From assembly GCA_028717685.1 (NCBI GenBank), contig JAQUNI010000001.1:54306-118305 (forward strand): a DNA stretch of 64,000 bases, written 5' to 3'. Position numbers and translations under genes: made by a program. The DNA comes from Patescibacteria group bacterium. GTDB lineage: Bacteria > Patescibacteriota > JAQUNI01. Below, piece after piece: positions 200 through 64,000 of this stretch (positions within the stretch are counted from its first letter, which is position 1; each line of letters starts with the position of its first letter). Below the pieces are notes generated by a model. The model made no database searches. It was not told where the DNA came from and saw only the letters and a program-made list of their open reading frames with translations.

Positions 200-365
200 T
201 TTGCGCGGTAATAAAACCTACTTCGTATTCGAACTTACCTTCGAACCAATATCTTGGCTAATCTAAGCTCATTTTTGGGAAAATCGTCCGGACTGGGGTA
301 TCGAGGTCTTCGAATTAATATTTTGGCTAAAGAATCGCATTTTCAGGAAATTCGTATGGACTAGC

Positions 366-436
<71 letters not shown>

Positions 437-14041: not shown

Positions 14042-14142
14042 AAAAATTAAAAATGAAAAGTGAAAAATGTAAAATTAAATTGAAAACAATTTTTTCATTT
14101 TAGATTGTGATTTTTAATTTTTCATTTTATATTTTACGTTTT
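14042..14142. repeat. heptamer-array hairpin (atgaaaa/gtgaaaa/gtaaaat words)
   Basis: An A-rich array (attaaaa atgaaaa gtgaaaa atgtaaa ...) is followed by a T-rich complementary array (ttttcat, attttac ...). The pairing register is ambiguous because of low complexity. Confidence 0.55.
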
Positions 14143-18019: not shown

Positions 18020-18064
18020 TTTTTTTACTATTTATCAAAATTTAATAATTTTCCCTGCGAAAAA

Positions 18065-18176
18065 TTTTCAATTTTCAATTTCTAATTTTTATTAAATTTT
18101 TAATCTTAAAATTTTTAAACATTTAAAATTGATTTATTGAAAATTTAATAAAAATTGAAAATTAGAAATTAAAAAT
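18065..18176. repeat. heptamer-array hairpin element, copy 1 (ttttcaa/tttctaa words)
   Basis: A 17-nt perfect inner stem (aatttttattaaatttt, about 18084-18100, against about 18141-18157) sits inside arms of about 36 nt. The element is about 91-93% identical by eye to 19932-20085. Confidence 0.75.
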
Positions 18177-18181
18177 TACTT

Positions 18182-31414: not shown

Positions 31415-31519
31415 AAGCGTAAAGTGAAAAGTGTAAAGCGTAAAGTGTAAAAAATAATAACCCAGTATTTTAAGTTGCACGCTGTTCATTTTATGCTTTA
31501 CGCTTTAAGTTTTAAGCTT
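31415..31519. repeat. heptamer-array hairpin (gtaaagc/gtaaagt words)
   Basis: 31433-31452 gtaaagcgtaaagtgtaaaa pairs with 31489-31508 ttttatgctttacgctttaa at 17/20 positions. The loop is 36 nt. It lies between the mreB stop and the mreC start. Confidence 0.7.
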
Positions 31520-32559
31520 TATTTATACTGCGTGTCCACCAACACCTCGCGCAAGAGGTCTAAATTTTCTAAGACCATGCCCGCGCCCCGAACAACACAA
31601 GTCAAGGGATCATTGGCGATCTGGACGGGCATCTGCGTCTCGCGTGCGACAAGACGGTCAAGACCGCGCAGGAGCGCGCCTCCGCCCGCCAAAATAATAC
31701 CCCGATCCATAATATCCGCGACAAGTTCAGGAGGGGTTTCCTCAATCGTTCCTTTAATATTAGAAACTAGATTTCTGATGGAACGCGATAAGGCTTCGCG
31801 CACCTGACTATCATTAATAATCACCTCCTTTGGCAGACCCGTGACGAGGTCCCGACCGCGCAACTTTGCTTCCAAGGGTTTCTTCAAAGGCCAAGCCGAG
31901 CCAATGGCGATTTTAATTTCTTCGGCTTTCCTTTCGCCGATTAATAAATTAAAGTGGTCGCGGGAATATTGAATAACATTCTCGTTTAATTCATCTCCCG
32001 CAATCCGCAACGATCGCGCCACCACGCCCCCGCCCAGAGAAATTACCGCCATCTCGGTTGTGCCGCCGCCGATATCCACAATCATACTTCCCGAAGCATC
32101 TTGCACGGGAAGGCGGGAACCGATGGCCGCGGCCATCGGTTCTTCAATCAAGAAAGCTTGCCTCGCGCCAGCCGTGCGCGTGGCATCCTCCACCGCTCGC
32201 CGCTCCACTTCGGTGCAGCCCGAAGGAATGCCAATCACTACCCTAGGTCGCGGAATAAGAGTGAACATTCCTTGGTGCACCTTCTGAATAAAATATTTTA
32301 ACATCTGCTCGGTCACTTCAAAATCAGAAATCACCCCGTCCACAAGTGGACGAGTGGCTACAATATGCATCGGCGTTCTTCCCACCATCTTTTTCGCTTC
32401 ATTGCCAATTGCCAAAACCTGACCCGTCTTCGTATTCATAGCCACGACCGAAGGCTCATTGATGACGATGCCTTTCCCACGCACATACACTAAGGTATTC
32501 GCTGTCCCTAAATCAATGCCGATGTCGCGGGAAAAAGCGCCTAAAAAACGATTAAACAT
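31519..32559 (-). CDS. mreB: rod shape-determining protein MreB
   Basis: 346 aa. GIDLGTANTLVYV, DIGGGTTE and GGGALLRGLD. Confidence 0.95.
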   Translation of the reverse strand: MFNRFLGAFSRDIGIDLGTANTLVYVRGKGIVINEPSVVAMNTKTGQVLAIGNEAKKMVGRTPMHIVATRPLVDGVISDFEVTEQMLKYFIQKVHQGMFTLIPRPRVVIGIPSGCTEVERRAVEDATRTAGARQAFLIEEPMAAAIGSRLPVQDASGSMIVDIGGGTTEMAVISLGGGVVARSLRIAGDELNENVIQYSRDHFNLLIGERKAEEIKIAIGSAWPLKKPLEAKLRGRDLVTGLPKEVIINDSQVREALSRSIRNLVSNIKGTIEETPPELVADIMDRGIILAGGGALLRGLDRLVARETQMPVQIANDPLTCVVRGAGMVLENLDLLREVLVDTQYK

Positions 32560-39234: not shown

Positions 39235-40245
39235 TTAAGTTTTACTAGACAGAATACTGTGCTTGTAGAGTTCCAAATTCTCTAGGGCTATGCCCGTGCC
39301 GCGAACCACGCAGAGAAGGGGATCTTCGGCAACATAAGAAGGCACGCCGATTGCTTTGCTCACGAGTTTATCCATATTGCGTAAAAGGGCGCTTCCACCG
39401 GATAAAACCATCCCCCGATCAATCACGTCCGCGGAAAGCTCGGGCGGTGTTTTTTGAAGCACGGATTTAATCACGTTGATAATCTCTCGCAAAGGATCTT
39501 GAATCGCTTCGGTCACTTCATTAGAGGTGATTTCAATGCTGCGCGGCAATCCCCCGACAATGTCGCGACCGCGAATCTCCGTCTTTTTATTTTCCGAAAG
39601 AGGCAAAGCGCTTCCGAGCTTGATTTTTACCGCTTCCGCCGTGGCGTCGCCAATCGCTAAATTATGCTTCGCACGCACATAATCTGTAATCGCTTGATCA
39701 AATTTATTGCCAGCCACGCGCGCAGAATTGGAGGTTACCACCCCTCCCAAAGAAATAATCCCCACCTCGGTCGTCCCGCCGCCGATGTCAATAATCATAT
39801 TCCCCACGGATTGACCGATTGGAATCCCCGCTCCAATTGCCGCCGCCACAGGTTGCTTGATTAAATAAACCGCTTTGGCGCCCGCGTTCATCGTAGCGTC
39901 CACCACCGCTCTCCTCTCTGTGGAAGTAATCCCCACAGGCACAGAGACCATCACTTCCGGACGAAATAACCTGACCCCGCCAGTCGCTTTGTTAATAAAA
40001 TAACGCAGCATCGTTTCGGTAATCCGATAATCCGCAATCACCCCGTCGCGCATTGGCTGGGAAGCTTTGATGTTTTCGTGGGTGCGGCCAAGCATTTGCT
40101 TCGCTTCCAACCCCACCGCTAAAATTTTATTGTCATCTAAAGAAACCGCCACTACTGTCGGTTCGTTAATCACCATTCCCCTCTTCGGCACGCAGACTAG
40201 GGTATTCGCGGTGCCGAGATCAATACCAATGCGTTTTGTGAACAT
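39235..40245 (-). CDS. mreB: MreB-family actin homolog, second paralog
   Basis: 336 aa. GIDLGTANTLVCV and DIGGGTTE. It is clearly homologous to 31519-32559. Confidence 0.9.
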   Translation of the reverse strand: MFTKRIGIDLGTANTLVCVPKRGMVINEPTVVAVSLDDNKILAVGLEAKQMLGRTHENIKASQPMRDGVIADYRITETMLRYFINKATGGVRLFRPEVMVSVPVGITSTERRAVVDATMNAGAKAVYLIKQPVAAAIGAGIPIGQSVGNMIIDIGGGTTEVGIISLGGVVTSNSARVAGNKFDQAITDYVRAKHNLAIGDATAEAVKIKLGSALPLSENKKTEIRGRDIVGGLPRSIEITSNEVTEAIQDPLREIINVIKSVLQKTPPELSADVIDRGMVLSGGSALLRNMDKLVSKAIGVPSYVAEDPLLCVVRGTGIALENLELYKHSILSSKT

Positions 40246-46367: not shown

Positions 46368-46994
46368 TTAACGCGAATAGTACTCCACAATCAACGCCAT
46401 ATCCACGGAATGATCGACATCTCTGCGACCTGGTTTTCTTAAAACTGTAATTACCTTAGTTTTAGGCTCTACAGAAAGCCACGTTACGGGTGCTTCCACA
46501 GGCAAATCAAGTTCTTTAAAATACTTATTATTTTGCGCCCTGGGAATTAAGGCAATCTTATCCTTCTCCTTCACCTCATAAGAGGGGATATTAACTTTTT
46601 TACCGTTGACTACAAAAAATTCATGATTCACTAATTGCCTCGCCTGCTGACGCGAACGAGCTAATTGCGCCCGATAAACGACATTGTCCAATCTGGATTC
46701 TAAAATTTGAAACAAAATATCGCCGGTAACTCCTTTTTTTTGACTTGCCACTTTATAATAGCGGCGGAATTGCCGTTCCAGAATACCATAAAGACGGCGC
46801 AGTTTCTGTTTCTCGCGCAAATGAAGACCATATTCGGATAGCCTGGCATTAAAGGCTTTAGGGCCTGTCCTGCCAGGAATATAATTTTTGCGCACCATCG
46901 CGCATTTAGGACTAAGACACCGCCCACCCTTTAAAAAAAGTCTTATTCCTTCACGGCGACAAAGGCGACATTTAGGACCTATTAATTTAGCCAT
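46368..46994 (-). CDS. rpsD: 30S ribosomal protein S4
   Basis: 208 aa with CRLCRREG and an S4 RNA-binding domain. Confidence 0.95.
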   Translation of the reverse strand: MAKLIGPKCRLCRREGIRLFLKGGRCLSPKCAMVRKNYIPGRTGPKAFNARLSEYGLHLREKQKLRRLYGILERQFRRYYKVASQKKGVTGDILFQILESRLDNVVYRAQLARSRQQARQLVNHEFFVVNGKKVNIPSYEVKEKDKIALIPRAQNNKYFKELDLPVEAPVTWLSVEPKTKVITVLRKPGRRDVDHSVDMALIVEYYSR

Positions 46995-56474: not shown

Positions 56475-56705
56475 TTATGCGCGCCGCAACTTTTTGGAGA
56501 AAATAAAGATAAAACACGAAGCATTCTGCTACTGGGGCGCGTGCGTTTCTGGATTTCTGCTCCCTTGTCTCTTATCAAATATTTTGGTAATATTAGAATG
56601 TGGCAGGCGGTAATGTTCATATATAAAGTATTCCGCAATTTAATATTGCTAATAAATTATAATAAACTCGGGCAAAATCAATATAAAAACGGATAAGGGG
56701 AAAAA

Positions 56706-56861
56706 TTGGCTTATCATAAGGGAAAATTAGCCCATCTTGTCGATGTTTCCAATAATACGGTTACTGACATTAAAGCAGGAAAACAAGGTAATCTCACTAT
56801 AAGAAACTCTAAAAAAATCGCCAAAGCCCTCGGTATATCTGTGGATAATTTTTTAATATAA
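56706..56861 (+). CDS. short XRE-type helix-turn-helix protein, possibly truncated
   Basis: A 51-codon frame opens at TTG (in-frame taa at 56694). (M)AYHKGKLAHLVDVSNNTVTDIKAGKQGNLTIRNSKKIAKALGISVDNFLI matches helices 2-5 of Cro/C1 HTH, but the first helix is missing. It is too short for the ORF track. Confidence 0.35.
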   Translation: MAYHKGKLAHLVDVSNNTVTDIKAGKQGNLTIRNSKKIAKALGISVDNFLI

Positions 56862-56870
56862 TACATTCAT

Positions 56871-57242
56871 ATGGCAACAACAAAGAAAAAAATTCTCATC
56901 ATAGAAGACGAAAAGCCAATGGCACGCGCGCTTGAACTTAAACTCACGCACGCGGGCTTTGAGGTGAAAGCGGTATTTAATGGCGAGGAGGGAATCAAAC
57001 TTCTCCAAGAAGAAACCTACGCGCTCATCCTTCTCGATTTGGTAATGCCCAATGTGGACGGATTTATGGTACTGGAGATCCTTAAAGAGAAAAAAATAAA
57101 AACTCCGGTCATGGTTCTTACTAATTTGAGTCAAGATAAGGATGAGGAGCGTACGAAAGCGCTCGGCGCAAAGGAGTTTTTTATTAAATCCAATACGACA
57201 ATTGCAACCATCGTTGAGAAGGTAATAAAACTTCTAGAATAA
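56871..57242 (+). CDS. stand-alone response regulator receiver domain
   Basis: 123 aa. KKILIIEDE, phospho-acceptor context LILLDLVMPNVDG, and a conserved T (VLTN) and K (FIKS). Confidence 0.9.
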   Translation: MATTKKKILIIEDEKPMARALELKLTHAGFEVKAVFNGEEGIKLLQEETYALILLDLVMPNVDGFMVLEILKEKKIKTPVMVLTNLSQDKDEERTKALGAKEFFIKSNTTIATIVEKVIKLLE

Positions 57243-57312
57243 CTATTTTCTTGTGAACCCCGCTAGAGTTATTTTTATGGTTAAAACGGGGAAAAAAATA
57301 AAAATATAAAAT

Positions 57313-59061
57313 ATGAAGGACAAATTAAAAAACGATACAGTCAATTCCAACGGGGTGAAATTTGACGACAAAACAATAAAGAAGATTCTCTTAAAAGGGA
57401 ACTATATTACTGAAGAAGATGTTAAGAACGCGGATGATTTTGCCACAACGCACCAAGTGTCATTCATAGGGTATCTGCTCCAAGAAAATCTCATCACCAA
57501 GGACCTCTTGGGGCAGGCGATTGCCGAATCGTTCAAGGTTCCCTACGCTGACTTAAATTCAGCACCACCCGCACCTCTGCAGGTGCAAAAAATTCCGGAG
57601 GAGACCGCGAAAAAATATCACGCGGTTATTTTCGCTGAAGAAAAAAACAAAACCGTAGTCGCCACCGATAATCCAGAAGATCCAACACTCCTGCCGGAAT
57701 TAGAAAAGCTGTTTGTCGGCAGGAGGTTGAGCATTGTCTATTCGCTGACCGAGGACATCAACGCGAGCTTTGTGCATTATCAAAAGCCGCTTGAAACCCG
57801 CTTCTCTAAGATTATTGAGAGCAAAGGGCGAGTCGCGCCAGAGCTTTTGGAAGAAATTTTTGATGACGCGCTCGTATATCATGCCTCCGACATCCATTTT
57901 GAACCCAGGCAGAAAGATGTGCTTGTGCGGTTTCGCATTGACGGCGTTTTACAAGAAACCGGCAGGATCCCCAAAGAATATTACGAAAATATTCTTAATC
58001 GCATCAAGGTGCAAAGCGGTTTGCGCATTGATGAACACTTTGCCGCGCAAGACGGTTCGCTCCGGTATGAACCCTCCTCCTTTAAAGCTTCCTCCTACGC
58101 TAACGCTCCAGCGGGCAAAAAGGATAGCGTTGTTGTTGACCTTAGAACCTCAGTTGTCCCCACTGTTGAAGGAGAAAAAGTGGCATTGCGCGTACTCTCG
58201 GCATATGTGCAAGGATTTTCTCTTGGTGATCTTGGTCTTTCGCCGGCACATCAGCAGATACTTGAGCAAGCCGCCACAAAACCATTTGGCATGATTCTCG
58301 TAGCAGGTCCCACTGGTTCCGGAAAAACCACTACGCTTTACGCACTTTTGAAACTTGTAAATAGCCCAGAGGTGAACATCACCACTATTGAGGACCCGGT
58401 GGAGTACAGGGTGCTCGGCGTGAATCAAATTCAAATCAATCCTCTAACAAATCTCACTTTTGCCAAAGGACTGCGTTCTATCGTCCGCCAAGACCCGGAT
58501 ATTATTCTGGTCGGCGAGATTCGCGACGAAGAAACAGCAGAAATCGCCGTAAATGCGGCACTCACCGGCCATCTTCTCTACTCCACATTTCACGCCAACG
58601 ATGCCGCTACCGCCATTCCTCGGCTTCTGGATATGGGCATTGAACCGTTTCTTTTGGCTTCCACGCTTGAGGTTATTGTCGCCCAGCGACTCGTGCGTAA
58701 AATTTGCGAACATTGCCGGCATAGTGTTACCAAATCGGCAAATGATTGGAAGACGCCTCAGCTTCGGTCAGTTATGCCATATCTTTCCAAAAAGTCGATC
58801 ACGCTCTATGAAGGGAAGAAGTGCGAGATGTGCGGCTATACGGGGTACAAAGGACGAACTGCTATTTTTGAATTCATCCAAATCACTCCGGAGATGCGGA
58901 ATCTCATCTTACACTCCCCGTCAACTAAAGAAATCTGGCAACTCGCCAGTAAGGATGGTTCAAAAACACTTTTTGAAGACGGCATTGAAAAAGTTAAGAC
59001 TGGAGTAACCACAATAGAAGAGCTGCTTCGCGTCGCCGAACCGCCGCAGAAGAGTGGGTAG
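57313..59061 (+). CDS. pilB: type IV pilus assembly ATPase (GspE/PilB family)
   Basis: 582 aa. Walker A GPTGSGKTT, Walker B DPDIILVGEIRD, His box TGHLLYSTFH, and a tetracysteine CEHC...CEMC. Confidence 0.9.
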   Translation: MKDKLKNDTVNSNGVKFDDKTIKKILLKGNYITEEDVKNADDFATTHQVSFIGYLLQENLITKDLLGQAIAESFKVPYADLNSAPPAPLQVQKIPEETAKKYHAVIFAEEKNKTVVATDNPEDPTLLPELEKLFVGRRLSIVYSLTEDINASFVHYQKPLETRFSKIIESKGRVAPELLEEIFDDALVYHASDIHFEPRQKDVLVRFRIDGVLQETGRIPKEYYENILNRIKVQSGLRIDEHFAAQDGSLRYEPSSFKASSYANAPAGKKDSVVVDLRTSVVPTVEGEKVALRVLSAYVQGFSLGDLGLSPAHQQILEQAATKPFGMILVAGPTGSGKTTTLYALLKLVNSPEVNITTIEDPVEYRVLGVNQIQINPLTNLTFAKGLRSIVRQDPDIILVGEIRDEETAEIAVNAALTGHLLYSTFHANDAATAIPRLLDMGIEPFLLASTLEVIVAQRLVRKICEHCRHSVTKSANDWKTPQLRSVMPYLSKKSITLYEGKKCEMCGYTGYKGRTAIFEFIQITPEMRNLILHSPSTKEIWQLASKDGSKTLFEDGIEKVKTGVTTIEELLRVAEPPQKSG

Positions 59062-59498
59062 TAGGATTAGTTGGTAGTTTGTAGTGAGTAGTTAGTAGTA
59101 AATATGAAAATTGAATCGTACGAAAATTTAATTGTGTGGCAAAAGTCAATGGATCTGGTGATTGCTGTTTATGCATTGACAGAAAAATTTCCAAAAGAAG
59201 AACTATACGGTTTAACTTCACAAATGCGCCGCGCAACTGTTTCAGTTCCTTCCAATATTGCGGAAGGTAGTAGGCGTGGTTCTCGAAAAAATTTTAGAAA
59301 TTTTTTACTCAATGCGTATGGTTCCAGTGCAGAGCTTGGGACTCAGATCAAAATCGCGAAACGGCTTTCATACGGAAAAACCAAAAATTATGAGCAAGCG
59401 GATGCACTGCTTGATGAAGTAATGCGCATGTTAGACAAATTGACGTATGGGCTCAAAGAATAAAAGTCTACAAACTACCAACTACAAACTACAAACTA
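59059..59498 (+). mobile_element. hairpin-loop four-helix-bundle cassette (IVS-like), copy 2
   Basis: 59068-59084 tagttggtagtttgtag is the exact reverse complement of 59468-59484 ctacaaactaccaacta (17 bp). ORF 59104-59463 fills the loop. Confidence 0.65.
59104..59463 (+). CDS. four-helix-bundle protein (23S rRNA intervening-sequence protein / Avd-like family)
   Basis: 119 aa. YENLIVWQKSMDL, FPKEELYGLTSQMRRATVSVPSNIAEG. It differs from ORF 61765-62124 at 10 of 119 residues. Confidence 0.9.
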   Translation: MKIESYENLIVWQKSMDLVIAVYALTEKFPKEELYGLTSQMRRATVSVPSNIAEGSRRGSRKNFRNFLLNAYGSSAELGTQIKIAKRLSYGKTKNYEQADALLDEVMRMLDKLTYGLKE

Positions 59499-60886
59499 TC
59501 TTCCTAGGCAAAGAACGGGACTATTTTATTGAGAATTTAAGCATGCTGGTCGCCGCTGGCATGCCGATTTTGGGCGTTCTCGACTCCATTGCCAAAGAAC
59601 TGCGCTCGCGCCGCATGAAAAAAATTCTTGCTCTTATTCGGGAATATATTGAATCTGGCTCGCCAATTTGGAAAGCGCTTCAAACAACTAACCTGTTTGC
59701 CGACCACACTATCTCGCTTATCCGCCTTGGCGAAGAATCGGGAAAGCTTACGGAGAACTTAAAAGTGGTCGCGAATGAACAAGAAAAAAATCGGGTGTTC
59801 CACTCCAAGCTTCGTTCCGCCATAATGTATCCTGTATTCGTACTCTCACTCACGGTCATTATCGGTGTGGGCATTGCGTGGTTTATTTTGCCCAAGCTGG
59901 CGCTGGTGTTTGCCCAGCTTAAAATAACCTTGCCCCTTATCACAAAAATTTTGATCGGATCGGGAACATTTCTTGGCGAATATGGCCAATACGTCGTGCC
60001 CGCGGCAGTTATAGCAATATCAGTTATTTTTTTCTTTATTTTCTCATTTCCAAAAACAAAATTTATCGGGCAATTTATTTTATTTTCTTTGCCCGGCGTT
60101 AAACAACTTATTAAGGAAGTGGAGCTGGCGCGGCTCGGTTATCTTTTAGGCACGCTTCTTGACGCTGGACTGCCGGTAACCCAAGCGCTCAACTCGCTCG
60201 CAAGCGCTACCGAGATTGCGCCATACAAAAAACTCTACAAACACCTGCGCGACTCGGTAGAAGACGGCAATCCGTTCCGGAAAAGCTTTATTTCCTTTAA
60301 GCGCACTAATCATCTTATTCCCGAACCTATTCAGCAACTCATCGTCGCTGGTGAACAGTCAGGCACTCTTTCAGCAACTCTTCTTAAAATCGGAGAGACT
60401 TATGAAGCTAAAGCGGACACGACGACAAAAAATTTGACCGTGATTCTGGAGCCGATATTACTCGTCATCGTGTGGCTCGGCGTTGTAGCCGTGGCGTTAG
60501 CAGTGATTTTGCCAATCTACAGCCTTATCGGCGGATTTAACGCCAACCAGCCCGCAGCGGCACAGCCTCCTCCTGCCGAAGAACAGGTAATCAGTCCGCC
60601 GCCAAGTGTGGAAACAACAGCTCCAGATACAGAAACCGTGGAAGTAATACCCCCTCCGGATACAGAAATCATAGAGAAAAAACCAACAACGCTCCGCGTT
60701 CTTCCCACTAGCGTAGGGTATCTTAACGTGCGCGAGAAACCATCATTAACAAGTAAAATCGTCACGCGCGTTAAGCCGGGTGAAACATTTGAATACACTG
60801 AAAAAAACGAGAGCTGGTATAAAATTATTTTGCCGGATGGCAATTCCGGATGGGTGTTTGAAAAATATGTTGAAGAAAATGAATAA
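59447..60886 (+). CDS. pilC: type IV pilus platform protein (GspF/PilC family) with C-terminal Pro-rich linker and SH3b-like domain
   Basis: 479 aa. Two T2SSF-type repeats (FIENLSMLVAAGMPILGVL and LGYLLGTLLDAGLPVTQAL) and three TM helices. The C-terminal YLNVREKPS...SWYKIILPDGNSGWVFEKYV is SH3_3-like. The ATG lies 17 nt inside the preceding ORF. Confidence 0.85.
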   Translation: MGSKNKSLQTTNYKLQTIFLGKERDYFIENLSMLVAAGMPILGVLDSIAKELRSRRMKKILALIREYIESGSPIWKALQTTNLFADHTISLIRLGEESGKLTENLKVVANEQEKNRVFHSKLRSAIMYPVFVLSLTVIIGVGIAWFILPKLALVFAQLKITLPLITKILIGSGTFLGEYGQYVVPAAVIAISVIFFFIFSFPKTKFIGQFILFSLPGVKQLIKEVELARLGYLLGTLLDAGLPVTQALNSLASATEIAPYKKLYKHLRDSVEDGNPFRKSFISFKRTNHLIPEPIQQLIVAGEQSGTLSATLLKIGETYEAKADTTTKNLTVILEPILLVIVWLGVVAVALAVILPIYSLIGGFNANQPAAAQPPPAEEQVISPPPSVETTAPDTETVEVIPPPDTEIIEKKPTTLRVLPTSVGYLNVREKPSLTSKIVTRVKPGETFEYTEKNESWYKIILPDGNSGWVFEKYVEENE

Positions 60887-60892
60887 ACAAAA

Positions 60893-60998
60893 CTAACAAA
60901 TGACACATAACATCTGACACATGACATTTGACACATATGAAACAAAAAAAATTATAGGAAAATAAAAGGGCATCGTCAGATGTTAGGTATCAGATGTT
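60893..60998. repeat. heptamer-array hairpin (ctgacac/atgacat words)
   Basis: The left array is ctaacaa atgacac ataacat ctgacac atgacat ttgacac. 60909-60932 pairs with 60975-60998 at about 19/24 positions. Confidence 0.65.
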
Positions 60999-61013
60999 CC
61001 AAAAGGGTTTACC

Positions 61014-61309
61014 CAGCACCACTTTTTAGATTATAAACATGTATTACGTCTATACCTTAATTAGTAAGTTAAAAAATAAGACAGAAATATATATTGGATC
61101 AACAAATGATCTGAGAAGAAGACTAAGAGATCATAATAATGGTAAAGAAAGATCTACAAAACGTTATAGGACGTGGAATCTGATTTACTACGAAGCATAT
61201 ATAACAGAGAGTCTAGCAAGATTAAGAGAAAAACGATTGAAACATCACGGAAATGCGATGAAAGAATTAAAAAAAAGAATCGGATTATCCGAATGGAAAA
61301 GTGGTGCTG
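61014..61309 (+). mobile_element. GIY-YIG nuclease-carrying element with 13-bp terminal inverted repeats and 8-9-bp flanking direct repeat
   Basis: 61014-61026 cagcaccactttt is the exact reverse complement of 61297-61309 aaaagtggtgctg. ggtttacc lies immediately outside both ends (61006-61013 and 61310-61317). Confidence 0.6.
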
Positions 61310-61731
61310 GGTTTACCTTGCTGGAAGTTCTTCTCTCTATCGCGGCGATCGCGATTATCGCCGTAATTTCTATTCCCATTTATCAGTCGTTTCAGGTGCG
61401 AAACGATCTTGATATCGCGACCATGGAAATTGCCCAAACTTTGCGGCGCGCGCAAGTACTTTCCCAAGCGGTTGATGGCGACACAAGCTGGGGCGTTTCT
61501 CTCGCAAGCGGAAATATCACGCTTTTTAAGGGCGTAAGTTACGCCACCCGCGATACCAATTTTGATGAAGTGTTTGATGTATCAACAAATATCACTCCAT
61601 CGGGACCTTCCGAAATCGTGTTTGTAAAATTTACAGGCTTACCACAGACCACGGGGACAATAATGCTATCCTCCAATATGAATGAAACGAGAAATATAGT
61701 AATTAACCAGAAGGGAATGGTTAATTATTAG
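61039..61731 (+). CDS. GIY-YIG nuclease domain fused in frame to a type IV pseudopilin (GspH/FimT-like)
   Basis: 230 aa with no internal stop. Residues 1-85 read YYVYTL..IYIGSTNDLRRRLRDHNNG..YYEAY..REKRLK (GIY-YIG). Then comes KSGAG|FTLLEVLLSIAAIAIIAV (class III signal with E5). An internal Met74 lies at 61258. Confidence 0.8.
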   Translation: MYYVYTLISKLKNKTEIYIGSTNDLRRRLRDHNNGKERSTKRYRTWNLIYYEAYITESLARLREKRLKHHGNAMKELKKRIGLSEWKSGAGFTLLEVLLSIAAIAIIAVISIPIYQSFQVRNDLDIATMEIAQTLRRAQVLSQAVDGDTSWGVSLASGNITLFKGVSYATRDTNFDEVFDVSTNITPSGPSEIVFVKFTGLPQTTGTIMLSSNMNETRNIVINQKGMVNY

Positions 61732-62158
61732 TTGGTAGTTTGTAGTGGGTAGTTGGTAGTAAATATGAAAATTGAATCATACGAAAATTTAATTGTGTGG
61801 CAAAAGTCAATGGATTTAGTGATTGCTGTTTATGCATTGACAGGAAAATTTCCAAAAGCAGAACTATACGGTTTAACTTCACAAATGCGCCGCGCGGCTG
61901 TTTCAATTCCTTCCAATATCGCGGAGGGGAGCAGGCGCGGTTCTCGGAAGGATTTTAGAAATTTTTTACTCAATGCGTATGGTTCTGGTGCAGAGCTTGA
62001 AACTCAAGTTAAAATTGCGAAACGACTTTCATACGGAAAAACCAAAGATTATGAGCAGGCGGACGCGCTGCTCGATGAAGTAATGCGCATGTTAAACAAA
62101 TTGACGTATGGGCTCAAAGAATAAAAATCTACCCACTACAAACTACAAACTACCCACT
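61729..62158 (+). mobile_element. hairpin-loop four-helix-bundle cassette (IVS-like), copy 3
   Basis: 61735-61752 gtagtttgtagtgggtag is the exact reverse complement of 62129-62146 ctacccactacaaactac (18 bp). ORF 61765-62124 fills the loop. Confidence 0.65.
61765..62124 (+). CDS. four-helix-bundle protein (23S rRNA intervening-sequence protein / Avd-like family)
   Basis: The start is taken at the ATG homologous to 59104 (MKIESYENL). The ORF track begins at a TTG (61753) inside the hairpin arm. Confidence 0.9.
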   Translation: MKIESYENLIVWQKSMDLVIAVYALTGKFPKAELYGLTSQMRRAAVSIPSNIAEGSRRGSRKDFRNFLLNAYGSGAELETQVKIAKRLSYGKTKDYEQADALLDEVMRMLNKLTYGLKE

Positions 62159-62746
62159 CAACAAGGCTTCAGCCTTGTTGAAGTTATTCTCGCCAGCGCG
62201 GTGTTTGTTTTGTTCGTTACCGCGCTTGTCGGAGCGTACCTCTATGGGCAGGAGTCAACCGCGCTTGCCGGCAATCGCGCGCGCGCGACGATTCTTGCCG
62301 AAGAAGGGCTTGAGGCAGTGCGCAATATCCGCGATGCCGGATTTTCTAATCTCACCGACGGCACCTACGGATTGGCTGTTGTCGGCAACCAATGGGCGTT
62401 ATTCGGAACATCAGACACAACGGGTATTTTTACCCGCCAAATTACAATTTCCGCTGTAGATTCAGAACGAAAAAGCGTGACTGCGAATGTCGCTTGGCAA
62501 CAAAATGCCCAGCGCCCGGGAGCAGTTGCCCTGACGACCTATCTTACTAACTGGAAAAAGGCGACTCCTGTCAATTCCTGCGATATTTACTGCCAGTTGT
62601 TGGGAACCTATACCACTGGTACCTGTCGGGAAAATTCCCAACAATGTACTAAGTATGACGAGATTTATGAGGCGGGCGGTGATCCTATTTGTGTGACTAG
62701 TTTTCCTGGCGACGCCAGCCATGATACTTGTTGCTGCAAACCATAA
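62108..62746 (+). CDS. type IV pseudopilin with cysteine-rich C-terminal domain
   Basis: MGSKNKNLPTTNYKLPTQQG|FSLVEVILASAVFVLFV is a class III signal with E5. There are 8 Cys in the last 57 residues. The ATG lies 17 nt inside the preceding ORF. Confidence 0.75.
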   Translation: MGSKNKNLPTTNYKLPTQQGFSLVEVILASAVFVLFVTALVGAYLYGQESTALAGNRARATILAEEGLEAVRNIRDAGFSNLTDGTYGLAVVGNQWALFGTSDTTGIFTRQITISAVDSERKSVTANVAWQQNAQRPGAVALTTYLTNWKKATPVNSCDIYCQLLGTYTTGTCRENSQQCTKYDEIYEAGGDPICVTSFPGDASHDTCCCKP

Positions 62747-62755
62747 TTTAGGGAT

Positions 62756-62814
62756 TAGTTTGTAGTGAGTAGTTGGTAGGTTGTAGTTTTCTACTCACTA
62801 CTCACTACAAACTA
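62756..62814. repeat. unoccupied heptamer hairpin between pseudopilin genes
   Basis: 62756-62772 tagtttgtagtgagtag is the exact reverse complement of 62798-62814 ctactcactacaaacta (17 bp). The 25-nt loop contains a small gtag tttt ctac stem. Confidence 0.8.
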
Positions 62815-62823
62815 CAAACTAAC

Positions 62824-63348
62824 ATGCTACCAACTACAAACTACCAACTACAAACCCAGCGTGGCTTCACGCTAATTGAACTGCTTCTCTATGTTGCCGT
62901 TGCGTCGGCGATACTTTTGGCGATTTCGGTTTTTCTTTCAATCCTCCTTCAGTCGCGCATCAAAAATCAAACTATCGCTGAAGTGGAACAGCAGGGGCTT
63001 CAAGTTATGCAACTCGTTACGCAAACCGCGCGCAACGCCGAGGCAATCACCTCGCCAGCGCAGGGCGCAAGCGCTTCATCTTTGACGCTTGACGTTATTT
63101 CTGCTGCCAGTGACCCCACTATTTTTGATCTCGCAAGCGGCGCGATTCGCGTCAAAGAAGGGGCTGGTTCAGCTACCGCTCTTACTAATTCTCGCGTTAC
63201 CGCTTCCGCTCTCACATTCCAAAATCTCTCTCGCACCGACACTCCGGGCACGGTTCGCGTCCAATTCACCCTCGCACATACAAATCCAGAAGGCAGAAAT
63301 GAATACTCATTTACTAAAACATTTATCGGCTCTGCGAGCCTGCGCTAG
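62824..63348 (+). CDS. type IV pseudopilin (GspJ/PulJ-like)
   Basis: The start is taken at the ATG giving MLPTTNYQLQTQRG|FTLIELLLYVAVASAILL. The ORF track begins at a TTG (62773) inside the hairpin. Confidence 0.75.
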   Translation: MLPTTNYQLQTQRGFTLIELLLYVAVASAILLAISVFLSILLQSRIKNQTIAEVEQQGLQVMQLVTQTARNAEAITSPAQGASASSLTLDVISAASDPTIFDLASGAIRVKEGAGSATALTNSRVTASALTFQNLSRTDTPGTVRVQFTLAHTNPEGRNEYSFTKTFIGSASLR

Positions 63349-63370
63349 TCATAATGCGGCAAATGCCGCA

Positions 63371-63477
63371 ACGACTGACACTTGATACCTAGCACCTGAC
63401 AACTGACCACTAACATCTAACATTTTGTTAGGTGTCAGATGCCAAATGTCAGGTGTTAGGTGCTAGGTGTCAAGTGT
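63371..63477. repeat. long heptamer-array hairpin (ctgacac ttgatac ctagcac ctgacaa ctgacca ctaacat)
   Basis: The outer stem 63376-63395 acacttgatacctagcacct pairs with 63458-63477 aggtgctaggtgtcaagtgt at 19/20. The inner arms are imperfect, with loop tttt near 63423-63426. Confidence 0.75.
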
Positions 63478-63507
63478 TAATTGTATAGAACCAGGTTATT
63501 CACACTC

Positions 63508-63927
63508 ATGATTATTTTAAAATATAAAAAGTGTTATAATAAACAGGAGGATGGGTTCATTACCCTAATAAGTGTCTTGGTGGTTGGAGCGGTTGGAATA
63601 GCCCTCACAATTTCCGTGATTTTGCTCGGGCTTGGGTCGTCGCGAACAAGTTTTACGAATGAGCAGTCAAACCAAGCGAAAGCCCTCACTAACGCCTGTG
63701 CCGAAGAAGCTCTTCAGCAAATTCGTGATTCTGTGAATTTTGAAGGTACCGGTAGCCTTACTTTAGGTCTGGGCAGCTGCACCTATACCGTGACCAAACT
63801 TGTTAGCCAGAACCGAACCGTCACCGCCAGCGGGACAGTGGGAACAATCATAAGAAAAGCAAGTATTGCTCTTGATACAATCAGACCGAGCATCAACATC
63901 ACTTCCTGGCAAGAGGTGGCTGATTAG
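63508..63927 (+). CDS. PilX/minor-pilin-like protein
   Basis: The start is taken at the first ATG, giving MIILKYKKCYNKQEDG|FITLISVLVVGAVGIALTISVILLG. It has a hydrophobic N-terminal helix but no Glu at +5. The ORF track begins at TTG 63481. Confidence 0.55.
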   Translation: MIILKYKKCYNKQEDGFITLISVLVVGAVGIALTISVILLGLGSSRTSFTNEQSNQAKALTNACAEEALQQIRDSVNFEGTGSLTLGLGSCTYTVTKLVSQNRTVTASGTVGTIIRKASIALDTIRPSINITSWQEVAD

Positions 63928-63989
63928 TTAGTAGTTTGTAGTGAGTAGTGAATAAAAAACTACCAACTAACACGCTACCAACTACAAGC
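63925..63989. repeat. heptamer arrays of the pilus-locus family at the window end
   Basis: tagttagtagtttgtagtgagtagtg is followed by actaccaactaacacgctaccaactacaagc. The words match 59059-62857 but complementarity is degenerate. The next gene lies beyond the window. Confidence 0.5.
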
Positions 63990-64000
63990 TAAATAAACAT

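Follow-up and report, generated by a model that had tools for sequence, protein, structure and literature searches.

How can a gene go on being translated when a repetitive element occupies the very place where its start codon would be sought? This question is raised by the type IV pilus locus at the right end of a 64,000-nt stretch of DNA from a Patescibacteria group bacterium (hereafter the window), where two copies of a 434-nt palindromic element sit at the fronts of pilC and of a pseudopilin gene. Each copy carries between its arms an open reading frame (ORF) for a four-helix-bundle protein of the intervening-sequence protein (IVP) type, which we refer to as the cassette, and in both cases the last 17 nt of the cassette ORF are shared with the beginning of the host gene that follows. 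We consider it probable that these are elements of the intervening-sequence type whose tail ATG starts the downstream gene. Compared loci in relatives are denoted below by L and compared protein entries by P, each followed by a number.

Two 434-nt elements and the starts of pilC and a pseudopilin

The limits of the two paralogous units, 59065-59498 (element 1) and 61726-62159 (element 2), both on the plus strand, were set by base-by-base comparison, in which identity runs from ATTAGTTGGTAG to the end of the 3′ arm. Element 1, a complete repeat unit, lies between the pilB stop codon (59059-59061, just upstream of the 5′ arm) and the conserved body of pilC, and element 2 between the stop of a GIY-YIG/pilin fusion ORF and the QQG/F of the pseudopilin (a slash within a leader marks the prepilin cleavage site). 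Each unit consists, in order, of a 31-nt 5′ arm, a 5-nt spacer, the ORF, a 4-nt spacer and a complementary 3′ arm. The 5′ arm of element 1 (59068-59098, inverted repeat I6, 31 nt) is 87% complementary to the 3′ arm at 59468-59498, and that of element 2 (61729-61759) participates in inverted repeats I7 (30 nt, 87% complementary) and I10 (24 nt, 96% complementary), with the 3′ arm at 62129-62158. The 5′ arms are built of TAGNNNN heptads, and because 7 mod 3 equals 1, a TAG every 7 nt closes all three frames; in element 2, the first TAG of the arm (61729-61731) doubles as the stop codon of the GIY-YIG/pilin fusion ORF. The 3′ arms consist of the complementary, CTA-containing heptamers, which have no stop in any frame, and they code for PilC residues 8-17 (LQTTNYKLQT) in element 1 and for leader residues 8-17 of the pseudopilin (LPTTNYKLPT) in element 2. 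Where 0.02 occurrences of the TAG-heptad pattern would be expected, the window has 14, all within 59068-63948; neither the element repeats nor their heptad arms are due to chance.

In RNAfold minimum-energy structures of the full 456-nt RNAs, the arms pair with each other across the 370-nt ORF (z=-5.7 for element 1 and z=-4.8 for element 2). Complementarity of the flanks is a trait of the family as a whole: when measured by an ungapped score, it exceeds the 99th percentile of shifted controls at 55% of 144 IVP loci from many phyla. RNA duplex energy, which the ungapped score replaced, failed to discriminate between real flanks and shifted controls (median -34.8 vs -29.8 kcal/mol). No T-tract follows the arms in a terminator scan, indicating that they are not intrinsic terminators, and promoter-like sites were at chance level in a promoter scan (14 vs 10.7 expected). 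An Rfam scan of 56500-64000 returned no rRNA or other family, only sub-threshold matches to microRNA-like hairpins.

The window contains just two copies of the 17-mer ATGGGCTCAAAGAATAA, at +59447 and +62108, and each of them forms the 3′ end of a cassette ORF. In the first overlap (59447..59463, plus strand), ATG 59447-59449 is the start of pilC and TAA 59461-59463 the stop of the cassette; in the second (62108..62124, plus strand), ATG 62108 is the start of the pseudopilin gene. The ATG is made from the cassette codons TAT GGG (Tyr-Gly), six codons ahead of the IVP stop, and the PilC frame is +1 relative to that of the cassette. According to the ORF listing, both ATGs are the first start after the preceding in-frame stop. 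The gene opened at 59447 (59447..60886, plus strand) codes for a type II secretion system F-family protein of 479 amino acids that begins MGSKNKSLQTTNYKLQTIFLGKERDYF, matches PF00482 in two stretches (E=8e-48) and ends in an SH3 domain (SH3_3); the one opened at 62108 (62108..62746, plus strand) codes for a pseudopilin of 212 amino acids that begins MGSKNKNLPTTNYKLPTQQG/FSLVEV and has its N_methyl motif at residues 17-40. The leader of the latter comprises residues 1-20, with cleavage between G20 and F21 (62165-62170) and glutamate at +5. Starts identical to ours are annotated by PGAP/NCBI in this metagenome-assembled genome, both for PilC (MDD5626508.1, 479 aa) and for the pseudopilin (P0121, 100% identical, 212 aa in NCBI).

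Codon reading leaves no canonical alternative to either ATG. In pilC, no ATG, GTG or TTG precedes codon 33, which lies within the T2SSF region: the Pfam match starts at residue 27, and residue 21 opens a block (GKERDYFVENLS) that is conserved across 120 orthologues. The only near-cognate codons are ATC (codon 18) and ATT (codon 28), both in pilC. The pseudopilin frame contains no start codon of any kind, near-cognate ones included, before G20/F21, and the next canonical in-frame start, a GTG, lies in the post-cleavage hydrophobic helix. An earlier, sequence-only reading of this DNA had made these very points, namely that the shared 17-mer opens both downstream frames, that the products are PilC and a pseudopilin, that no other canonical start precedes the prepilin cleavage site, and that pilC would have to wait until codon 33; all of them hold. 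Its notion of a portable start codon with a short N-terminal peptide likewise stands, as the ATG, the six codons after it and the arm, together coding for 17 residues, all lie within the duplicated unit, ahead of two different genes. By this reading of the codons, it appears correct that each element supplies the sole usable start codon and the first 17 residues of the downstream gene, and we infer that the tail ATG is actually used as the start.

Several pseudopilin genes lie downstream of pilC, and the third (MDD5626512.1, 174 aa) is preceded by a cassette-free hairpin on the plus strand (62755-62786 and 62791-62822, inverted repeats I8 and I9). As the sequence-only reading had noted, this gene has its own ATG past the empty hairpin, at 62824; there is an in-frame TTG at 62773, and the ATG is followed by an arm-like stretch (62827-62855) coding for the leader MLPTTNYQLQTQRG/F. 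A further TAG-heptad hairpin (63925-64000) starts with the stop codon that closes the last pseudopilin-like gene (63481-63927) and reaches the edge of the window.

The cassette gene and its tail ATG in other lineages

The cassette ORFs of element 1 (59104..59463, plus strand, MDD5626507.1) and element 2 (61765..62124, plus strand, MDD5626510.1) each code for 119 amino acids and are 92% identical at the protein level. Both match the PF05635/TIGR02436 profile (23S rRNA intervening-sequence protein) over its full length, positions 1-105/106 (PF05635 E=8.1e-39 and 4.2e-40, respectively), and both products are named "four helix bundle protein" by NCBI. A comparison of the two copies gives a ratio of nonsynonymous to synonymous divergence (dN/dS) of 0.11 (dS 0.33); the ratio is 0.04-0.12 between the first copy and L081, L168 and L179, and 0.03-0.13 over the pairs with estimable dS, as expected for what the IVP ORF is, a maintained gene under purifying selection. 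Its C-terminus (..MLNKLTYGLKE) aligns without change of length to relatives lacking the overlap, e.g. ..MLNKMTTILKA; it has therefore not been extended, and the ATG is native cassette coding sequence rather than the result of read-through into host DNA.

Scans of genome and metagenome contigs with the cassette protein yielded only relatives of at most 64% identity, and the close relatives, same-clade cassettes of 69-88% identity, came from the protein database and contig look-ups. The window PilC had escaped the homologue search owing to a clustering artifact, the cluster to which it had been assigned being represented by 38-aa peptides unrelated to it. The sequence-only reading had proposed that other copies of the cassette be examined for a tail ATG followed by an open downstream frame, and the outcome is positive: an ATG 17 nt before the cassette end (-17) opens the downstream gene through the 3′ arm in five other lineages. 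Two exceptions are L181, with its quick stop, and L182, from which the ATG is missing. The host gene is pilC in L081 (MNLKNKSPQTTHYSLQTLFLGKERGYF) and in L183, a near relative of the window organism (MGSKNKNLPTTNYKLQTIFLGK). It is a pseudopilin gene in L168-L177, where the product has LVIVD repeats and measures 497 aa from the -17 ATG (MNSMNKNLQTTHYKLQTSNG/FSLVEV), and in L178, where the arms are of another word type (MNLIPKKLKSYNLQPKHG/FSLVEV). In L179/L180, a gene unrelated to pili, coding for an NMT1/OpuAC periplasmic binding protein of an ABC transporter (367 aa, MNLINKNLQTTHYQLLTKLVFIIVII..), starts in the same way. Two indirect cases come from protein entries: P0253 shows a 20-nt overlap, and in P0267/P0187 the cassette tail NEFKS, followed by the stop, and the N-terminus MSSNLKK fit a 17-nt overlap at the protein level. 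The arrangement thus recurs across lineages and host genes, staying in frame with different host genes and where PilC identity is only 68%.

Orthologous loci that are poor in cassettes were also compared, as the sequence-only reading had suggested. In L163, only about 100 nt of the cassette 3′ end remain between pilB and pilC, and pilC starts at the homologous ATG (MNLKTEKPQTARYRLPANFGLGKEQ), which lies inside a hairpin whose arms have diverged and become GC-rich while still pairing. L082, with a PilC 84% identical to that of the window, has no cassette before pilC, which begins with ATGAAAATAGCATCGTAC followed directly by AAACTACAAACT: its start corresponds to the first six codons of the cassette (MKIESY changed to MKIASY), 18 nt in all, fused in frame to the 3′ arm. 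By homology, the pilC starts of both loci are element-derived, from the tail ATG in L163 and from the head ATG in L082. The L082 site orthologous to that of the pseudopilin is occupied by another IVP cassette, whose arms also differ; the overlap there is ATGA, and the leader (MKKRSPYSIFNIPHSTQG/F) is coded by the arm. The pilB-pilC junctions of L165 and L167 are cassette-free, and the pilC ATG lies upstream of a translated arm-like stretch; in L165, it is in the hairpin loop. Taken as a group, these orthologues all have element-derived pilC starts.

The latter loci bear on the possibility that the ATG belonged to the host first, i.e. that the pilus genes of this lineage have their native start codon within a hairpin loop between genes, followed by a coding 3′ arm, and that an IVP gene later entered this loop upstream of the ATG, its frame running over it. 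Such hairpins, with an ATG in or just past the loop and a translated arm, are indeed found without a cassette at L165 pilC, at the third pseudopilin gene (62824), at the first pseudopilin gene of L082 and at a histidine kinase gene of L181, and the distance from ATG to arm in L165, 7 codons, equals that in the window. We nevertheless regard a host origin as unlikely, given that the ATG and its next six codons belong to the unit duplicated before two host genes, that the IVP C-terminus is no longer than in relatives without an overlap, and that the unrelated binding-protein gene in L179 is preceded by the same -17 ATG. Moreover, the empty pilC hairpin of L082 holds 18 nt of the cassette ORF and therefore looks like a deletion derivative of a full element, at least at that site, rather than its precursor. 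The proposal of the sequence-only reading that the cassette inserted into the loop of a pre-existing empty hairpin is conjectural.

The N-termini affected appear to be permissive. Prepilin leaders of orthologues range from MKG/F to more than 40 residues of arm-like, low-complexity sequence, and PilC orthologues have 2-73 variable residues ahead of the conserved block, comparisons which confirm that the N-terminal positions of PilC and of prepilins can tolerate insertions.

Some of the related cassettes have a more complex structure. The one preceding pilC in L183 (L183:1-430), a near-identical relative, combines substitutions of the type of the second copy (ATCATAC, CTACCCAC) with the arm end of the first, which suggests that gene conversion may have taken place between the two copies. 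The order at L179:1931-2000 is 5′ arm, 3′ arm, cassette, 3′ arm, and at L181:2355-2470 it is 5′ arm, cassette, 5′ arm, 3′ arm, ATG, arm-like leader; both compound arrangements point to nested or tandem hairpin events.

The window contains a third IVP gene, on the minus strand at 446-829, which codes for a protein of 127 aa, 42% identical (PF05635 E=3e-37), and whose arms (ACGAATTACGAATCACG and ATTCGTACTTCGTAATTCG) are of another sequence. Its neighbors are dnaX on one side and, on the other, the gene for tRNA-Gln (364-436, minus strand), which begins 9 nt past the IVP stop; this copy has neither a downstream protein gene nor a tail start codon. A fourth, weak tblastn match (39907-40083) is spurious and falls within MreB.

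Initiation of the host gene and points against it

The mechanism that we favor can be outlined as follows. The element fills the gap between one pilus gene and the next, and because its 5′ arm closes every upstream frame, the host gene must start inside the element, where the tail ATG is the sole candidate. Translation from this ATG would proceed through seven codons of cassette tail and spacer and ten codons of 3′ arm before entering the host frame, and the 17 element-coded residues would fall at tolerant sites, either in the variable cytoplasmic N-terminus of PilC or in the prepilin leader, which is cleaved off at G/F; in a relative, they would form the n-region of a signal anchor. Initiation is most likely aided by ribosomes finishing the IVP ORF, through termination and reinitiation 17 nt back or through melting of local structure, but it could also be independent, as would hold for most genes of this Shine-Dalgarno-poor genome. 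As Adhin and van Duin reportedly found in 1990, terminating ribosomes can reinitiate at nearby upstream start codons. A Shine-Dalgarno-like motif precedes only 8 of the 57 likely genes of the window, most of the others being AT-rich upstream and devoid of a motif, and for this reason its absence here says little about coupling. Translational coupling of the host gene to the IVP ORF is plausible; to judge from L163 and L082, in which pilC uses element ATGs with no intact IVP ORF upstream, it is not obligatory. A frameshift fusion of IVP to the host protein was also considered and found no supporting evidence. How the element moves is likewise a matter of inference.

A number of observations weigh against the explanation given here, and the first group concerns the tail ATG as part of the element. 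In L181, the tail ATG meets a stop after 9 codons, since a second 5′ arm intervenes, and the host gene has an ATG of its own; the L182 cassette is without an ATG, and the gene next to it is on the opposite strand. Cassettes of this kind thus do not invariably carry the ATG. Among the closest family proteins, the dipeptide at the corresponding position is compatible with an ATG in only 38 of 114, and a codon test for selection on the ATG was not significant, with the Tyr/His codon being NAT in 8 of 8 cases against a 71% background (p about 0.06, the sequences being related). In addition, several of the recurrences precede one pseudopilin orthologue group and could partly reflect vertical inheritance. 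The second group concerns initiation itself. The predicted fold of element 1 pairs the ATG with cassette codons 5-6, although this pairing is not conserved in element 2, and RNase III, were it to cut the stem as it does that of rRNA intervening sequences, would detach the ATG from the host gene's body. A rare non-canonical start of pilC at ATC codon 18 is conceivable and would yield an N-terminus as short as that of some orthologues (MFALFLGKERDYF). Finally, the host organism is uncultured, and start use in pilC and the pseudopilin gene is a prediction from the sequence.

One rival reading is that the arrangement is an accident of survivorship, with the ATG arising from conserved Tyr/His-Glu/Gly residues of the tail, the arms being free of stops by chance, and only in-frame insertions surviving. 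The retention of an ATG in L181, where it is useless, fits this account, as does the failure of the NAT bias at the site to rise significantly over background. In the wider family (45-64% identity), moreover, the host ATG normally lies directly past the 3′ arm, and a start of any kind in the cassette tail is found in only 16 of 159 copies, among which all four with at least 69% identity have it at -17; the assignment of starts as "in arm" or "after arm" is unreliable, as the arm boundaries given by duplexfold are over-extended. Such an accident would leave start use undisputed, differing from the explanation that we prefer only as exaptation differs from adaptation, and we consider it rather improbable: [HY][EG] occupies the ATG-forming position in 15 of the 18 closest relatives, the only sequenced copy to lack the ATG, that of L182, is likewise alone in having no co-oriented downstream gene, and the L163 remnant has kept its ATG after losing the IVP ORF.

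Another rival reading is that the tail ATG is not used at all, with pilC starting at the ATC of codon 18, which makes its N-terminus resemble those of the shortest orthologues, or with both genes silenced and their open frames left over from ancestry. We find this very unlikely. The pseudopilin has no near-cognate start before G/F to fall back on, and initiation at its GTG would lose G-1, F+1 and E+5; both host ORFs are intact and of full length, the frame has been kept at the PilC divergence and across the host genes mentioned above, and both lineages that lost the cassette, L163 and L082, have retained an element ATG in frame.

Known elements, neighboring repeats and wider implications

The elements most closely resemble the ORF-bearing intervening sequences of 23S rRNA, such as those of Leptospira and Coxiella burnetii, in which a PF05635 ORF likewise lies in the loop. 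The Coxiella intervening sequence measures 428 nt and has a 28-bp terminal stem, tandem heptamers (GACAGAT), an S23p ORF and an RNase III cut midway along that stem (PMC4990558); the present unit is similar in length (434 nt), in its stem of about 30 bp and in its arms of tandem heptamers (TAGNNNN). The stem itself is of the intervening-sequence kind, with arms of 30-31 nt and 87-96% complementarity that enclose the ORF and pair in the minimum-energy fold. By location, however, the elements cannot be classed with rRNA intervening sequences: they are flanked by pilB, pilC and pilin genes, with no rRNA detected by Rfam in 56500-64000, and thus reside in a protein-coding operon and its mRNA instead of an rRNA helix. 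They further differ in that the next gene has its N-terminus translated from the 3′ arm and its start codon within the ORF tail, and in that the IVP ORF is under purifying selection, whereas the Coxiella ORF is decaying and probably untranslated. Excision by RNase III without religation, which defines rRNA intervening sequences, would harm the host mRNA in the present case.

[quoted passage not shown] RPEs, however, carry no gene of their own and insert internally, not at the gene front, and the review cited contains no report of RPEs providing a start codon, the term "start codon" being absent from it. The full elements described here have an ORF and so differ from MITEs and RPEs, which are resembled instead by the cassette-free hairpins (62755-62855, L165 and L082) with their translated 3′ arms. 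Full-text literature searches yielded no report of intervening-sequence or IVP elements donating start codons or leader peptides.

Coupled overlapping gene pairs share with the present case a downstream start within the 3′ end of a same-strand upstream ORF (here at 59447-59463 and 62108-62124) and the lack of a Shine-Dalgarno motif. Such pairs usually overlap by 1 or 4 nt, however, against 17 nt here; the first ORF belongs to the element and is unconnected with pilus function, and in the L163 and L082 lineages pilC lacks an intact ORF ahead of it. As in homing-endonuclease insertions in introns and inteins, a selfish ORF sits in a host gene whose product is not lost, but the rescue involves no splicing, relying on an element-borne start codon in the IVP element and on in-frame fusion in the GIY-YIG element described below. 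Two further classes were considered and set aside. The elements are not integron gene cassettes, since their arms flank the ORF on both sides and their neighbors are pilus genes (an integrase was not looked for elsewhere in the window), and the IVP protein is not the Avd accessory protein of a diversity-generating retroelement: its bAvd profile match of 28.5-30.9 bits for the two copies is under the 40-bit cut-off, and the adjacent genes are pilB, pilC and pilins.

Were this explanation to hold, it would extend intervening-sequence-type elements from rRNA to protein-coding operons and offer a concrete route by which a selfish element could settle at the 5′ end of a gene that its host, with a streamlined genome, needs, and still leave that gene active. 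It would also explain the variable, low-complexity prepilin leaders and PilC N-termini of Patescibacteria, many of which would be translated hairpin arms, and it calls for caution, as gene starts and N-termini in these genomes may often be repeat-derived. Gene callers already disagree on such starts, placing that of P0207 50 nt inside the cassette and calling the L183 cassette at 104 aa. The locus would lend itself to a clean natural experiment on reinitiation in a bacterium poor in Shine-Dalgarno motifs, in that replacing TAT by TAC takes away the start codon of the host gene and leaves the cassette protein unchanged. More tentatively, it is possible that IVP hairpins are widespread selfish "gene-front" elements which settle at bacterial translation starts, and that one clade of Patescibacteria has evolved in combination TAG heptads closing every incoming frame, a stop-free 3′ arm and a tail start codon. 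The element could then live inside N-terminal coding regions such as prepilin leaders, the PilC N-terminus and signal peptides, and on this reading expression of the host gene would depend on translation of the element or on processing of its hairpin.

The pilus locus also includes a response regulator gene (56871-57242) and pilB (57313-59061), and it harbors a second kind of insertion. A GIY-YIG nuclease ORF (61039-61731, MDD5626509.1) is bounded by 13-bp inverted repeats, CAGCACCACTTTT (61014-61026) and AAAAGTGGTGCTG (61297-61309), the insertion thus spanning 61014-61309 (within 60994-61331), and on either side stands a direct repeat, GGGTTTACC (61005-61013 and 61309-61317). The prepilin start that the insertion interrupts, ATGTTCCAAAAGGGTTTACC/TTGCTGGAA (MFQKG/FTLLE), is a canonical one, and the GIY-YIG ORF continues in frame into the pilin (..KSGAG/FTLLEV); a second, unrelated element thus rescues its host pilin, in this case by fusion at the leader.

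Long imperfect intergenic hairpins made of other repeated words are common throughout the window, e.g. at 14043-14142, 18063-18177, 31420-31521 and 63371-63484, and arm-like words directly precede many gene starts, such as ATTCCTAATTCC before the minus-strand genes starting at 46994, 47561, 48030 and 32559. Short perfect palindromes, TCAACAAGGCTTCAGCCTTGTTGA and CCAGCGTGGCTTCACGCTAA, span the prepilin cleavage codons at 62158-62181 and 62856-62875, with similar ones at the orthologous sites of L082; these may be a consequence of the G-F-T/S-L codons or may represent a recognition feature.

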